Assembly: GCA_016717305.1 (NCBI GenBank)
Contig: JADKFY010000010.1
Coordinates: forward strand, 28,279 to 92,278
DNA length: 64,000 nucleotides
Reading direction: 5' to 3'
Origin: Flavobacteriales bacterium
GTDB taxonomy: Bacteria > Bacteroidota > Bacteroidia > Flavobacteriales_F > PHOS-HE28
Part shown: piece after piece, positions 1,121 to 60,115 of the stretch
Layout of the letters: every line of letters begins with the position of its first letter
Numbering within the stretch: position 1 is the first letter of the stretch
The notes under the pieces: generated by a model
Told to the model about the DNA's origin: nothing
The model's database searches: none
What the model saw: only the letters and a program-made list of their open reading frames with translations
Made by a program: the position numbers and the translations under genes

Positions 1121-2007
1121 AACACCCTCAATTTGAAAACATGTTGGTTGTTCAGCCGCAAGAAATAGGCTCCGGTTCCTAACCCGGGAAGTACTACTTG
1201 CACATGGTCCACACCAGATCGGATCGGATCAACAGGAACGGTACGTCCAATTCCGTCGAACAACTCCAGGCTCTCGATCGGTTGATGGTCCAAGGCTACA
1301 ACATGGACCACGTCGTTGACCACGGTCGGGAATACATTGAATCCATTTTGGACCACCAAGGTCGGCACTGGAGTTGGTGCGTCCATATCGAACGCAGTAA
1401 TGTATCCACCGGGTTGGAACCAACTGCCGGATACTGAATTGCTCCCAACGTCCGGTGCACTTGCCATCAAGCTCCATGGCCCGGTCATGTCACCAGAACT
1501 GAACAACGATAGGTTCCCTGGTGGCAGACCATAGAGTTCGCTTGGGTCGTACGTGAGCACCACATCGATGGACCCATTTACCATAGGGCCTGATCGCAGT
1601 TCGAACCAACGCCCTATGCTCGAGTCTCCCTCAGGGAATTCGCGCGGTATATGCCCACGCACCACGGTGATGGGGGAAGGGCCACTACTCGAGGAAAGGT
1701 CCAACCCGAGGTTGCCGGGTTCTTCGTTCGAATAGGGCACGATTGCAGTGAGAACTGCAGTTTCGGTACCAGCACCGGTAATGGGTCCACCCACCGGTTC
1801 GAAGATCCTAGCGGTCTCTCCCAACGAAATAAGGCCGTTGTTCACCACGGTCGCTCCCGGGTCTATGGTCCATTCCAACGGACCTTCCAGTGTAACGGTG
1901 GTGCCTTCAGCAACAGTGACCGAACCGGAGATCAACCGCATTTGTTGACCACTGACCACTGCTTGATCAAGCAGTAGGATAGGACATAGGATAAACCATT
2001 TGTGCAT
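1117..2007 (-). CDS. T9SS C-terminal-domain secreted protein (hypothetical)
   Basis: The six-frame ORF is 1117..2307, but the likely start is the ATG at 2007-2005, which gives the signal peptide MHKWFILCPILLL. The C-terminus (...VDPIRSGVDHVQVVLPGLGTGAYFLRLNNQHVFKLRVL) has the Por/T9SS type A sorting-domain pattern. Confidence 0.6.
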   Translation of the reverse strand: MHKWFILCPILLLDQAVVSGQQMRLISGSVTVAEGTTVTLEGPLEWTIDPGATVVNNGLISLGETARIFEPVGGPITGAGTETAVLTAIVPYSNEEPGNLGLDLSSSSGPSPITVVRGHIPREFPEGDSSIGRWFELRSGPMVNGSIDVVLTYDPSELYGLPPGNLSLFSSGDMTGPWSLMASAPDVGSNSVSGSWFQPGGYITAFDMDAPTPVPTLVVQNGFNVFPTVVNDVVHVVALDHQPIESLELFDGIGRTVPVDPIRSGVDHVQVVLPGLGTGAYFLRLNNQHVFKLRVL

Positions 2008-2103
2008 GGGTTGCGAAGTTAGGAAGTTCAGTTGGATCGGGCACATGTGCCTAAGAGATCTTCTTGAGCGTCCCCCATTAGCTTTGCGCCAAATGCTAGC
2101 GAC

Positions 2104-2508
2104 ATGGATGTGAAGGGATTCGTTGTTGACCAACTTGGTCATTTTTCGGTATACGACCTGCCTGAAGTCCTTTTCGTTATTGTGGTTGCGGCCTTGCTGG
2201 GATATACGTTGGCAAGGTTCGGGGCAAGACAAACAGGGACTGTCCTGAAGCAAATGGCCTTTTGGGCCGCTGCAGCTGCATTGGCAGCTGTTTTTGTTCG
2301 ATCCCAATTGCCCATGGCTGCTCTTATGCTCGCGGCGGCAGTTTTGGCTGGGAAGCGTAGCTACGAAATGGGGAATGATGCCTTGTTCTTCTCCGTATTG
2401 GTGGTTGGCATCGGTTGCGGAAGCGGAGCCACGGTGGTTGTTGTTCTGGCGATGATCCCATATTTGTTCTTGATGCGTTGGGCCTTTGGGCCTGCTTCAC
2501 GTTCTTGA
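2104..2508 (+). CDS. small polytopic membrane protein (possibly DUF4956-like)
   Basis: ATG at 2104. The 134-aa product is very hydrophobic, with roughly 4 predicted TM segments. Its stop TGA (2506-2508) overlaps the ATG (2508-2510) of the downstream CotH gene, suggesting translational coupling. Confidence 0.45.
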   Translation: MDVKGFVVDQLGHFSVYDLPEVLFVIVVAALLGYTLARFGARQTGTVLKQMAFWAAAAALAAVFVRSQLPMAALMLAAAVLAGKRSYEMGNDALFFSVLVVGIGCGSGATVVVVLAMIPYLFLMRWAFGPASRS

Positions 2509-4169
2509 TGCTGGAAACCCAGGCACCTTGGAGCGACTTCATCGGTTTAGTGACAAGCAGCTTGCTTTGCTTGGCATTGGCGGCTTTTGTGGGAAGTCCA
2601 CCACCCGGTCCAGTTCCATTCAAGGGCGGTGCAGTTCCCTTGGTCCATCCATCGGTCGCAAGCGTTGGACAGAGCGGAAACGTTACTATCCGCTCTGTGC
2701 GAGGTGGCTATATTCATGTGGCTGAACAAGCCAATGGCCCAATGCTGGAAAGAGGCACCGTGTTCCGCTTTGTGCCTACCCCGGACCAAGTTGATGCGGA
2801 TCGTACGCTAAGTATCCCACTCTCGATCAACTGGCATCATCCCTTGTTGGGGTTACCCGCAGCTCAGGTAGTGCGTTTTGCGGAAAGTGATGGTCCGGAA
2901 AGGATCGGTCCGGAACGCATGCATACGATACTCTTTCAGGACCATGGAACATTGCCCGTATTGTCTTTGCTTGTACCTCACGGAGCTTTGTTCGATCCAG
3001 ACACAGGGATCATGGTCGTGGGGAACGGAATTTTCCATGCACCTGAGAAAGTGCTGGTGGCCGAGGCCAGGGACCCTAGATCGTGGAAGTATCCCGGCAA
3101 TTTCCACATGCGCGGTAAGGCATGGCAGCGAAGCGGCCGCATGCAATTCATCGGGGCCGATGGGCTTGAGATCTTCCAGACAGAAGTGAACGTTCGGATC
3201 AATGGACAGATGACACGTTCCTTTCCACAACATGCCCTTCGCTTCGGTTTTGAAAAGCCTTTGCGCGTGGATGTGTTCAACGAGAATGTCGGTTCAGGCT
3301 ACGAAGGATTGGTGCTGCGAACAGCAGGAAATGATCAGATCAAAGCCATGCTTCGGGATCCCTTCCAACACGGGCTATGTGCGGGTCTACCCTTCGAGGT
3401 ATCGGGATCACGCACATGCGTGGTTTATGTGAACGGTGCCTATTGGGGTGTCCATCATTTGCGGCACCGAATGGACGAGGAAGAATTGGCAAGGCGCTAC
3501 GGGGTTTCCAAGAAACGCATCACCATCCTGGAAGATGAAGCACGTCTTTACCGGGGTGATACCATGGAAGTGGTGCGGTTCGAACAACTTGCGGACCGTA
3601 CGTACCATTGGGACGGCAAGGACCCGGCCGAACGAAAGGCTCTTGAGGAGAACCTGGATATCGATGGTTTCTTCGCTTACATGGCCAGTCAAATGATCCT
3701 TGGTAACGTGGATTGGCCTTCGCAGAACGTGAAATTCTGGAAGTTCGGGGGCAAGGAGAAGGGCGATGCACCGTTGGATGGCAAATGGCGCTTCATCATG
3801 GGTGATTGTGATCTGGCCTATGGGGTATATGCGTCAGCGACCAGCGATATGTTCATGCGGGTAAAGGCGTTGGACGTGCCTTTGACTCGTTTGTTCAACG
3901 GAATGATGAAGGCTCCGGACCTTAAATTGCGCTTCGTACAGATAGCCCGTGATCTGGCCCAAGGGGCGTTCTCCGCAAAGCGATCCACGGCACGGCTGGA
4001 GGCCCTTGTAATGCTCATGGCACCAGAAATGGACAGACACACGGCCCGCTGGCGACGTCCGGGTTCAGTAGAGGTTTGGCAGAAGGAAGTGGATGTTTTG
4101 CGCACCTTCGCCGCCCAGCGCGAGGGCAACATCCTCCAGCAATTGGATGCGTTTGAACAAGTTCGCTAG
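2508..4169 (+). CDS. CotH-family atypical protein kinase, membrane-anchored
   Basis: Internal ATG at 2508 gives the hydrophobic N-terminus MLETQAPWSDFIGLVTSSLLCLALAAFVG. CotH signature blocks present: RINGQMTRSFPQHALRFGF (the RGNSSR..KKSF-type block), LRTAGNDQ...VYVNGAYWGVHHLRHRMDEEELARRYG, and GDCDLAYG (the W/HxDxD..G block). Confidence 0.75.
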   Translation: MLETQAPWSDFIGLVTSSLLCLALAAFVGSPPPGPVPFKGGAVPLVHPSVASVGQSGNVTIRSVRGGYIHVAEQANGPMLERGTVFRFVPTPDQVDADRTLSIPLSINWHHPLLGLPAAQVVRFAESDGPERIGPERMHTILFQDHGTLPVLSLLVPHGALFDPDTGIMVVGNGIFHAPEKVLVAEARDPRSWKYPGNFHMRGKAWQRSGRMQFIGADGLEIFQTEVNVRINGQMTRSFPQHALRFGFEKPLRVDVFNENVGSGYEGLVLRTAGNDQIKAMLRDPFQHGLCAGLPFEVSGSRTCVVYVNGAYWGVHHLRHRMDEEELARRYGVSKKRITILEDEARLYRGDTMEVVRFEQLADRTYHWDGKDPAERKALEENLDIDGFFAYMASQMILGNVDWPSQNVKFWKFGGKEKGDAPLDGKWRFIMGDCDLAYGVYASATSDMFMRVKALDVPLTRLFNGMMKAPDLKLRFVQIARDLAQGAFSAKRSTARLEALVMLMAPEMDRHTARWRRPGSVEVWQKEVDVLRTFAAQREGNILQQLDAFEQVR

Positions 4170-58419: not shown

Positions 58420-58869
58420 AGTTGCTTTTGGAAGGTCGGCAAAAGTAGATGGTACACCTCTGATCGATCCCAAAACCTGATGAACGGTAGAAGTAGCCCG
58501 GAGTGTGGTTTGACTTTAGGGTACCTCGAAGTACCTCACTCCGGCGGCATCGGCCCACAGGCCGACCCTTCGGGCAGGCACTTCTCGTTCGGTCATCCGG
58601 CGTTGCTTCTCAGTCAGTTACCAATAGGTAACTTCCTTTCGTCGCGCCTTGTCTGTCCAGAACGATAAGCGCTTGTGCCATCCGTTCGAGGTACTTCGAG
58701 TTACCCTTTGTAAGGAACAGTGTTGAACCGCGGATGTTCTCAGGAACAACGAACTCCATCAACATGTTCTGGGCATACTGTGTTTTCGGTCCGGGAGCCA
58801 AAGGAAGTGGGATCAGTACTTGTTTGTTGAACAAGAGGGATCAATACTTTCTTAGATTTGCGGCCCTTC

Positions 58870-58944
58870 AGGGTGTAGCGCAGCCCGGTAGCGCATCCCG
58901 CCTGCGGGCGGGATGGTCGCTGCGAAGTGCGGGACAAGGAGTTT
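58870..58944 (+). pseudogene. degenerate tRNA-like sequence (tRNA-Pro-related pseudo-tRNA)
   Basis: Shares gggtgtagcgcagcccggtagcgca (acceptor/D-arm) with the adjacent tRNA-Pro. The anticodon and T arms do not fold canonically. Confidence 0.3.
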
Positions 58945-59018
58945 CGGGGTGTAGCGCAGCCCGGTAGCGCACTTGCATGGGGTGCAAGGGGTCGCTGGTT
59001 CGAGTCCAGTCACCCCGA
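58945..59018 (+). tRNA. tRNA-Pro (anticodon GGG)
   Basis: Acceptor cggggtg/caccccg plus A73. D-arm gcgc-agcccggta-gcgc. Anticodon arm cttgc-atGGGgt-gcaag (U33, G37). T-arm gctgg-ttcgagt-ccagt. No encoded CCA. Confidence 0.8.
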
Positions 59019-59448
59019 CTGGTTTGAAAGCCGTCTCAACAGAGGCGGCTTTCTTCATTCTATTCAACTGTGCACGGTAGCGCATCCCGCCGTGGTGGCG
59101 GGAGGGTCGCTGGTTCGTCCCGCATACAATAGAGAAGGACTGCGGGACCAGTCACCCCGACTGGTTTGAAAGCCGTCTCAACAGAGGCGGCTTTCTTCAT
59201 TCTATTCAACTGTGGACGGTAGCGCATCCCGCCGTGGTGGCGGGAGTGTCGCTGGTTCGTCCCGCATACAGTAGACAAGGACTGCGGGACCAGTCACCCC
59301 GACTGGTTTGAAAGCCGTCCCAACAGAGGCGGCTTTCTTCATTCTATTCAACTGAGCACGGTAGCGCATCCCGCCGTGGTGGCGGGAGGGTCGCTGGTTC
59401 GTCCCGCATACAATAGAGAAGGACTGCGGGACCAGTCACACCGACTGG
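59011..59448 (+). repeat. three tandem 142-bp repeats derived from the tRNA-Pro 3' region, each with a terminator-like hairpin and an inserted palindrome
   Basis: caccccgactgg recurs at 59011, 59153, 59295 and (as cacaccgactgg) 59436. Each unit contains aaagccgtctcaacagaggcggcttt plus a T-tract, and a 5'-truncated tRNA-like segment whose T-loop carries tcccgcat-N16-gactgcggga. Units are ~97% identical. Confidence 0.75.
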
Positions 59449-59614
59449 AAAGAAAAGGAGGCCGTTCGGCCAAAGCTCCAAACCATGATCCAACGGATGT
59501 AATTGAACAGGTTAGAAATAGGTGCATCGGATACCAATAAGTGGGTATTGTGGTCCGTTCCCGGTCACGATAGTTTTGCCCTCAACAAGGAAGCCACTAA
59601 ACCTTGGTATTGCA

Positions 59615-60115
59615 ATGAAAACCTTCGCACGTCCTTTAGCCCCAATAGCCACTGCGATCGTCCTGGGCTTCTTGGCAACACTGCCTTTCAAAGCTTGGTC
59701 ACAAACATCCGATATGGTCCTGATAAAGGGTCAGGTCATTGTATCCGACCAAGTGACCACAGCGGTTGACCTTACTCTGGATGTAGGTGTTTACTCTTGT
59801 GATAAGGTCCTCCTCTTTGGCCGTGGTAAGTTCGAGATCCATGCAAAGGATGGCGAACGGTACGAATTGCGTTTCGAGCAAGTGGGTAGTGTTTCGAAAA
59901 CAGTAATGATCGACACCAAGGATGTGAAGAAGAAGGTAGGAGACAAGAAGCACGTGGTGGAATTCGATGTGGTCCTGGCTCCCATGGATACCGTACAGCC
60001 CTTGCACTATGCACAACCCGTTGGAAAGATCAATTTCCATAAGAGCAACGGTCGATTGTTGGTGGAGCACAACCGCCAAATGGTTGCTACCGACCCTGCA
60101 CTACAGCAGAAATGA
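59615..60115 (+). CDS. hypothetical secreted protein
   Basis: ATG at 59615 gives MKTFARPLAPIATAIVLGFLATLPFKAWSQ. Beta-rich, Lys-rich. No recognisable motif. Confidence 0.45.
   Translation: MKTFARPLAPIATAIVLGFLATLPFKAWSQTSDMVLIKGQVIVSDQVTTAVDLTLDVGVYSCDKVLLFGRGKFEIHAKDGERYELRFEQVGSVSKTVMIDTKDVKKKVGDKKHVVEFDVVLAPMDTVQPLHYAQPVGKINFHKSNGRLLVEHNRQMVATDPALQQK

Follow-up and report, generated by a model that had tools for sequence, protein, structure and literature searches.

The stretch analysed here, referred to as the window, comprises 64,000 nt of contig JADKFY010000010.1 in the genome assembly of a wastewater Flavobacteriales bacterium (GCA_016717305.1; positions 28,279–92,278 of the forward strand). 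A single tRNA gene, tRNA-Pro(GGG), was called in the whole window by ARAGORN, and it is flanked on both sides by tRNA-derived DNA, with a degenerate pseudo-tRNA upstream and a tandem array of three units downstream (59006–59448; period 142 bp, 3.1 copies, 96% matches, and zero indels in Tandem Repeats Finder, TRF). The array starts inside the 3' end of the functional tRNA, and the 3'-terminal bases of the tRNA open every unit (Table 1). An earlier reading of this DNA, made without database searches (the sequence-only reading), had proposed one functional tRNA with flanking tRNA-derived copies, a 142-bp tandem repetition, and a degenerate tRNA-like copy before the real gene, and had set the array apart from clustered regularly interspaced short palindromic repeats (CRISPR); all of this was borne out. 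Neither the units nor the upstream copy received a tRNA call from ARAGORN or from the Rfam tRNA model, even at E ≤ 10.

Anatomy of the array and its upstream pseudo-tRNA

The repeated DNA is centred on a 17-mer core, which occurs four times, the last time with one mismatch, against 0.25 occurrences expected. Each unit runs from the core through a terminator-like hairpin (TTTGAAAGCCGTCTC-AACA-GAGGCGGCTTTC plus a T-rich tail) and a spacer of only 16 nt to a short D-arm-like hairpin (GTGCAC-GGTAGCGCA), followed by the hairpin TCCCGCC-GTGGT-GGCGGGA (the V hairpin), GGGTC GCTGG TTCG, the hairpin TCCCGCA-(16 nt)-TGCGGGA, and the next core. The DNA between cores thus combines trailer and terminator sequence of the tRNA itself with a 5'-truncated pseudo-tRNA, here termed V-type, in which the V hairpin TCCCG…CGGGA takes the place of the anticodon arm. 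The units differ at only 2–6 positions, and the predicted fold of one unit (−65.1 kcal/mol) is far more stable than those of shuffled sequences (z = −4.7). No conserved open reading frame (ORF) was found in the window units, whose period of 142 is not divisible by 3.

Two details of the sequence-only reading need correction. It had given each repeat its own terminator and had the T loop replaced by a 30-nt palindrome. Terminator-like hairpins with stems of 10–12 bp do stand 3' of the tRNA and 3' of units 1 and 2, but none is intact after unit 3, where only a degenerate terminator remnant is left. The 30-nt hairpin is likewise present in all three units (against zero occurrences expected), but TTCG of the T loop is retained, and only AGT has been swapped for the hairpin, which has a 7-bp stem and a 16-nt loop. 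The trailer CTGG, 3' of the discriminator, makes CCAGTC-ACCCC-GACTGG a perfect hairpin, and it is conserved both in this GC-rich Flavobacteriales genome (window 59006–59022) and in the AT-rich tRNA-Pro(GGG) genes of IMG/VR viral contigs (L027–L061).

Table 1. Positions of the promoter, tRNA, pseudo-tRNAs, cores, and terminators at the tRNA-Pro locus (window coordinates).
Feature	Position	Strand	Details
Bacteroidota-type −7 promoter box	58853..58860	+	TAGATTTG (TAnnTTTG); precedes pseudo-tRNA leader and tRNA-Pro
Upstream pseudo-tRNA (V5')	58869..58944	+	5' acceptor strand with one mismatch; D arm
V5' hairpin	58896–58913	+	TCCCGCC-TGCG-GGCGGGA; replaces anticodon arm
V5' 3' part	within 58869..58944	+	T arm and 3' acceptor replaced by CGAAGTGCGGGACAAGGAGTTT
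Functional tRNA-Pro(GGG)	58945..59019	+	CCA not encoded; ARAGORN; Rfam tRNA 59.8 bits, E = 1.3e-11
Core 1	59006..59022	+	CCAGTCACCCCGACTGG; T-stem 3' strand, acceptor 3' strand, discriminator, CTGG; left end of the array
Terminator T1a of the tRNA	59026..59063	+	12-bp stem GAAAGCCGTCTC/GAGGCGGCTTTC, then T-rich tail
Unit 1 V-type pseudo-tRNA (V3')	59070..59164	+	Short D-arm-like GTGCAC-GGTAGCGCA; V hairpin 59085–59103; GGGTC GCTGG TTCG
Unit 1 T-loop hairpin	59118–59147	+	
Core 2	59148–59164	+	
Terminator T1b	59168..59205	+	
Unit 2 V-type pseudo-tRNA	59212..59306	+	V hairpin 59227–59245; T-loop hairpin 59260–59289 with two single-nucleotide polymorphisms (SNPs); core 3 59290–59306
Terminator T1c	59310..59347	+	One stem mismatch, GTCCC
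Unit 3 V-type pseudo-tRNA	59354..59448	+	V hairpin 59369–59387; T-loop hairpin 59402–59431
Core 4	59432–59448	+	CCAGTCACACCGACTGG, one mismatch; end of unit 3
Degenerate remnant of the locus's original terminator (T0)	59449..59482	+	Intact in relatives L163 and L164; by-eye comparison

The pseudo-tRNA upstream of the real gene (V5') matches the unit body over 41 nt at 88% identity and also occurs in the related loci L024, L017, L020, L021, and L170. A TAnnTTTG box precedes it, one of two such boxes on the + strand in 58700–59650 and of 19 on both strands of the whole window. The box is kept upstream of the pseudo-tRNA in L024, L017, L020, and L021, and as TACATTTG in L171, and it probably drives transcription of the pseudo-tRNA leader together with tRNA-Pro. 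A motif scan found no such box inside the units. The units are therefore taken as largely silent DNA, as they lack a promoter box and lie behind terminators. In the window version of V5', the 7-bp stem is perfect and closes a TGCG loop, and this version differs at about 10 positions within 50 nt from those of L007, L022, and L026, which are otherwise near-identical strains; the difference looks like a gene-conversion patch.

Assembly error, which the sequence-only reading had allowed for, does not account for the array. Three JGI contigs (Ga0073900_10031060, Ga0209063_1001495, and Ga0073899_10007517), retrieved by a 27-mer scan of JGI metagenomes, carry exactly three units with identical unit-specific SNPs, and since these are three independent metagenome assemblies, the array is not an artefact. 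The gene for a 166-aa protein just downstream of the array (59615–60115) recurs on 14 public contigs, which derive from metagenomes of wastewater and from metagenome-assembled genomes (MAGs) of Flavobacteriales, and the majority of short-read contigs break inside the array. Because contigs end in the array, one (L012) has two units, and one (L006) has an N gap, true copy-number variation looks the same as short-read collapse in this set, and the two units of L012 may reflect either.

Related loci and the GIY-YIG cassette

Syntenic loci were found via homologues of two flanking proteins, the TonB receptor and the 166-aa protein, at graded distances, and they present a graded series of states. 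L166 and L167/L168 (TonB receptor identity of 75% and 78%, respectively) have a plain tRNA-Pro without pseudo-copies. L018/L025 (166-aa protein, 86%) carry the tRNA, the same terminator, and a single 5'-truncated pseudo-tRNA, in which the T loop has its ordinary 7 nt; L164 (79%) likewise has one unit without the T-loop hairpin; L163 (92%) has two units; and L171/L172 (TonB receptor, 70%) combine four ORF-bearing units with five pseudo-tRNAs upstream. Both the array and the number of its copies are therefore specific to lineages, and the variation among relatives for which the sequence-only reading had proposed a check does exist.

In the single-unit relatives, the unit directly precedes the same downstream sequence as unit 3 of the window. 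As unit 3 abuts this ancestral sequence and is the sole holder of a private core mutation, the last unit appears to be the old one and is probably the ancestral single copy. Of the two units of L163, the proximal one reproduces the T arm, core, and terminator of the tRNA exactly, while the distal one combines a decayed core with a T-loop hairpin of the same stem and another loop. The V-type units also carry the tRNA variants of their own lineage, GGGTC…GAGTCC in the window and L163 versus TGGTC…GAATCC in L171. The copies therefore evolve in concert, which indicates that gene conversion between them and the functional gene continues.

Contigs L171 and L172, both from MAGs, are 529 kb and 295 kb long, and the L171 array region lies at 1752–3659 of JADJBO010000005.1 (GCA_016703685.1). 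The promoter TACATTTG is followed by 5.3 tandem copies of a 74-bp upstream pseudo-tRNA (98% identity), tRNA-Pro(GGG), and 4.2 tandem units of 357 bp (99% identity). Each 357-bp unit consists of a terminator, an 84-aa ORF, and a V-type pseudo-tRNA with the hairpin TCCCGCC-CTGAG-GGCGGGA, an intact T arm, and the same 17-bp core as in the window. The ORF matches the Pfam GIY-YIG domain (E = 1e-12), the closest solved structures to its product are the UPF0213 proteins 1ZG2 and 1YWL, and its final codons, GGC GCA GCC CGG TAG, double as the D arm of the pseudo-tRNA. ARAGORN labels two of the L171/L172 pseudo-tRNAs as tRNA-Ser(tga).

The same ORF end is found in L016 (a 60% relative), and the C-termini of GIY-YIG homologues are mostly GAAR*, AGR*, or SAR*. 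Two homologues with mis-called N-termini translate the tRNA-Pro T arm (VAGSNPVTPT) or the V unit, and consecutive accessions of homologues point to tandem GIY-YIG genes in several MAGs. The family alignment shows conservation of the GIY and YIG tyrosines, of Arg, and of Glu. Among curated phages, homologues were limited to two weak Staphylococcus phage matches (32% identity); none were found in curated plasmids, NCBIfam gave no match, and PHROGs and PADLOC gave weak matches only.

The same design recurs, in part at other tRNAs, in IMG/VR contigs that represent host flanks of prophages (L174, L175, L180, and L199). In L180 (IMGVR_UViG_3300048038_000024, 1–900), three upstream V-type pseudo-tRNAs precede a real tRNA-Lys(TTT), a terminator, and a GIY-YIG ORF that ends in GGG TAG AGCA, followed by the V hairpin and then a T arm whose loop holds a 20-nt insertion; a second terminator and ORF come after this first V3' copy. 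One upstream pseudo-tRNA of L180 has an extra D-loop hairpin, and the V hairpin occurs there in two versions, short (4-nt loop) and long (about 29-nt interior). L175 has an ORF between direct repeats of the 3' part of another tRNA, and the downstream copy starts TAGCA-TCCCG-TTACAA-CGGGA-GGGTC. L174 reads ...GCC AGA TAG AGCA-TCCCGA-TTGTAA-TCGGGA-CGGTC and then the T arm. The tRNA-like 3' parts of L174 and L175 have acceptor strands unlike that of tRNA-Pro. In L199, phage coding DNA directly adjoins a tRNA-Pro tail that carries at least 6.3 copies of a 112-bp unit without an ORF; a prophage end here abuts the first core of a homologous array, the kind of neighbour for which the sequence-only reading had proposed to look.

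The V hairpin itself is conserved as a structure. In a constructed mini-alignment of 11 distinct copies, comprising the outer 7 nt of each hairpin strand with the variable loop set to GAAA, the hairpin is 93.5% paired and compensatory changes occur at five of seven pairs; none of 500 shuffles equals this value, and slid controls collapse. Wider motif scans were little informative: one for T-loop-insertion variants (GCTGGTTCGN{20,50}CCAGTCACCCCGA) in genome contigs returned only five chance matches, in coding DNA of other phyla, and one for long V hairpins returned mostly GC-rich chance matches. At about 1322–1356 of L219 (IMGVR_UViG_3300043174_000157), a complete tRNA-shaped gene has intact acceptor, D, and T arms, but its anticodon arm is replaced by a hairpin of 27 nt, TCCCGCCGGCGCCTTGGCGCCCCGGGA; this locus gave no match to GIY-YIG.

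The hallmarks of the V-type module, as defined from L171, L180, L174, and L175, with family-level evidence from about ten loci, are the 3' half of a D arm (GGTAGnGCA), the TCCCG…CGGGA hairpin, and a T arm and acceptor strand that match the neighbouring real tRNA. GGTAGnGCA, the hairpin, and GGGTC are present in all three window units and in the upstream copy. The T arm and acceptor 3' strand of the window units match the adjacent tRNA, and a copy of the tRNA trailer and terminator stands before each, as in the units of L171, L175, and L180. The window also has a V-type pseudo-tRNA behind the tRNA promoter and upstream of the real tRNA, comparable to the 5.3 copies in L171 and the three in L180. 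A GIY-YIG ORF with its TAG stop in the D arm of a pseudo-tRNA was not found in the window by tblastn. Every non-coding feature of the module is present in the window units and the ORF alone is missing; the units are homologous to the ORF-bearing modules.

Origin of the array

On balance, the array is probably an ORF-less relic of a tRNA-linked cassette of GIY-YIG gene and V-type pseudo-tRNA, amplified by unequal recombination between tRNA-derived repeats. In this reading, the array is a segment of the DNA 3' of tRNA-Pro(GGG) that has been amplified in tandem. Repeats common to the tRNA and the pseudo-tRNA (the core, GGGTCGCTGGTTCG, and GGTAGCGCA) would permit unequal homologous recombination or slippage, which would duplicate the 142-bp interval and then expand, contract, and homogenise the copies. 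That recombination or slippage makes and resizes the array is suggested by the direct repeats common to the tRNA and pseudo-tRNA, by a period equal to the core-to-core distance, and by internal cores identical to that of the tRNA, with only the terminal core mutated. In the ORF-bearing relatives, GIY-YIG breaks in tRNA-like DNA probably trigger amplification, by analogy with SegB in phage T6, and the nuclease would then be its driver. The window units would now be inert DNA, transcribed only via terminator read-through.

Several points weigh against this reading. The window has no GIY-YIG homologue (tblastn with the 84-aa protein, no match at E ≤ 10), and the link to the GIY-YIG cassettes is drawn from non-coding homology. 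The nuclease is a bare UPF0213 catalytic domain without a DNA-binding domain, so site-specific cleavage of tRNA genes by it is only putative. The conserved, covarying V hairpin and the structured unit fit an inert relic poorly and hint at a function of the pseudo-tRNA; the hairpin may act at the RNA level or as a DNA structure. The family-level case comprises about ten loci. Lastly, the similarity between the 16-nt spacer and the 5' end of the ORF is not significant (p about 0.1–0.5), and for this reason loss of the ORF in the window is indistinguishable from its gain elsewhere. We do not claim that the spacer is a remnant of the ORF 5' end: the spacers of L163 and L199 match the same ORF position, yet p is about 0.1.

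A bolder proposal, put forward only tentatively as possible rather than probable, is that V-type pseudo-tRNAs and the 84-aa UPF0213 GIY-YIG protein form a selfish cassette at Bacteroidota tRNA genes. The nuclease would cut tRNA-gene DNA at the T loop, or hairpin DNA; repair through the universally conserved segments of the D and T arms would amplify the cassette in tandem and spread it between tRNA loci; the pseudo-copies would be immune owing to their rewritten anticodon arm and T loop; and ORF-less arrays such as that of the window would be non-autonomous copies, maintained in trans by a nuclease gene at another genomic site. In the pseudo-copies, insertion or rewriting affects the T loop, and it could be speculated that this rewriting represents scars of cleavage or immunity to it.

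Three other explanations were weighed against the relic. The units, which the sequence-only reading had alternatively taken for a small-RNA array, or the upstream leader might yield a stable tRNA-like small RNA, acting as a decoy, a sponge, or a partner of a GIY-YIG protein encoded elsewhere, in the manner of RttR. We consider this unlikely, even though the unit folds far better than shuffled sequences (z = −4.68), the V hairpin shows covariation between lineages and between tRNA loci, a terminator closes each internal unit, and the analogous E. coli repeats are annotated with the small RNA gene rttR. The units lack a TAnnTTTG box and a strong terminator stands before every one of them; copy number and the integrity of T arm and core vary freely among close relatives, and some related lineages are without the elements. 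Nor does any Rfam family match the unit, the score of YrlA being 19 bits against a threshold of 69. A plain neutral tandem duplication of a decayed tRNA-Pro paralogue, independent of nucleases and mobile elements and with a coincidental GIY-YIG association in the relatives, would in principle need only unequal crossing-over between the 17-bp and longer repeats, and the E. coli tyrV flank has the same geometry (178 bp × 3.1, 95%) without a known nuclease. Coincidence, however, would not be expected to produce the ORF-stop-in-D-arm junction, the V hairpin, and the two-sided layout again and again at different tRNAs in distant Bacteroidota, and we hold this explanation to be very improbable.

The remaining explanation, repeated integration and imprecise loss of phages or elements targeting tRNA-Pro, with the units as attR-type remnants, also seems improbable to us, and more so than a small RNA. 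The repeats are, as at tRNA attachment (att) sites, direct repeats of a tRNA 3' end, and the sequence-only reading had suggested duplication of an att core. The identical 17-mer is indeed a real att core, since in many Bacteroidota viral contigs non-tRNA phage DNA adjoins (g)aatCCAGTCACCCCGACTGG or a longer tRNA-Pro fragment that starts in the anticodon loop. In L199, the coding DNA of the phage stops at ...caagaa/GCACCACCCCGACTGG with the homologous array directly next, and GIY-YIG/V modules lie at the ends of IMG/VR contigs beside tail-fibre-like genes. As an origin of the array, however, this suggestion fails to fit the DNA between the cores, which is not element DNA but an exact copy of the host tRNA trailer and terminator plus a pseudo-tRNA whose hairpin is conserved at loci with other tRNAs. 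The window repeats have no element or integrase between them or next to them: integrase Pfam domains were absent from the ORFs scanned at 50–64 kb of the window and from those annotated within about 10 kb downstream on syntenic contigs, and no integrase was found beside V modules in the parts of viral contigs examined. The 3'-truncated upstream pseudo-tRNA is not a product of 3'-end integration, viral scans with 16-mers of the unit body matched only unrelated phage coding sequences, and modules of the same type as the window units are found, together with a GIY-YIG gene, at other tRNAs. The multiplied cores may nevertheless be usable as phage landing sites. Several phage att arms carry a common ttgataatcaaa motif.

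Other candidate identities were tried and rejected. The match to YrlA or bacterial Y RNA-like RNA (RF02553; 19.1 bits against a gathering threshold of 69) was driven by the T arm of the real tRNA; a permuted or split tRNA would need a 5' acceptor strand after the core, where none is present and a terminator intervenes; and the window array is not Pedo-repair.

Tandem repeats seeded by a tRNA 3' end have been known, without a mechanism, since E. coli tyrT, whose 178-bp repeats (3.14 copies) were reportedly described in the literature of 1978–81. TRF run here on the tyrT-tyrV flank (NC_000913.3), annotated with rttR and tpr, gave a period of 178, 3.1 copies, and 95% matches. As in the window, that array begins in the 3' end of the functional tRNA, the tRNA 3'-terminal nucleotides open each unit, about 3.1 copies stand at about 95%, and the units hold a T-arm-like piece. 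Unlike the window units, with which they share no significant sequence similarity (best blastn E about 0.25), the E. coli units code for RttR and Tpr and lack a hairpin replacing an anticodon arm, an upstream pseudo-tRNA, and any known GIY-YIG link. The repetitive extragenic palindromic sequences and bacterial interspersed mosaic elements (REP/BIME) associated with REP-associated tyrosine transposases (RAYT) offer an analogy only: they too are short, clustered, hairpin-bearing non-coding repeats with or without an associated nuclease gene, whereas their enzymes belong to the Y1 transposase family and the repeats have no relationship to tRNA and are dispersed genome-wide.

The closest parallel to the proposed mechanism is SegB, a GIY-YIG protein of phage T6 that cuts inside tRNA genes at RAWTSGAAC (PMC13096335), a site that appears to be the reverse complement of T-loop DNA. 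[quoted passage not shown] The arrays of L171 and L180, tandem units of a tRNA-like gene and a GIY-YIG gene, share this junction logic and, by analogy, look like natural, fixed versions of SegB-type amplification. The two systems also differ. SegB is a longer phage protein treated as a free-standing homing endonuclease, and T6 amplifies a functional tRNA under defence pressure in arrays that collapse without selection (PMC13096335). The nuclease here is an 84-aa UPF0213 domain in bacterial chromosomes, the Bacteroidota copies are non-functional pseudo-tRNAs with a conserved hairpin, and the window units have no nuclease gene.

Tandem repeats of tRNA 3' ends and nuclease-linked amplification of tRNA segments are known kinds of event, of which the window array is a variant. 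Within the library searched, a literature search on GIY-YIG with tRNA, pseudo-tRNA, Bacteroidetes, COG2827, or UPF0213 found no description of GIY-YIG/pseudo-tRNA arrays, and the cassette family is apparently undescribed so far. Taken alone, the nuclease-less window array is most likely a relic of modest interest, and its main value is as an entry point to this family; together with its relatives, it suggests that natural, fixed versions of GIY-YIG-driven amplification of tRNA segments exist in bacterial chromosomes, centred on a stereotyped pseudo-tRNA, with its conserved and covarying hairpin, and on a minimal GIY-YIG nuclease. If true, this would account for one type of pseudo-tRNA clutter, and of assembly breaks, at the tRNA genes of Bacteroidota, give UPF0213 proteins a testable role, and show how phage att sites can be multiplied as a by-product. 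A selfish cassette, if it exists, would provide the first biological role for the widespread UPF0213 (YhbQ/YazA-like) family.

Flanking genes and minor features

The genes flanking the locus in the window encode a TonB receptor, DUF4249, TrxB, an M1 peptidase, and others, and two ORFs have no Pfam match. The promoter and tRNA-Pro cassette is inverted relative to the TonB-receptor and 166-aa protein genes in L017, L020, L021, L167, and L168. A second Bacteroidota −7 box, TAGTTTTG, lies at 59571–59578, 37 nt upstream of the lipoprotein-like 166-aa gene, and no intact terminator stands between the last unit and this box. On the other side, a 74-aa ORF on the − strand (58610–58834), which has no Pfam match, is an annotated gene on the syntenic MAG contig L006 (2020–2244), and a palindrome, tcagttaccaataggtaactt, is located at about 58612–58640. 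L167 and L168 encode an identical TonB-receptor protein (P0014), and relative to L167, L168 carries at about 3236–3440 a 205-bp insertion with terminal inverted repeats, resembling a miniature inverted-repeat transposable element (MITE), downstream of its plain tRNA-Pro.

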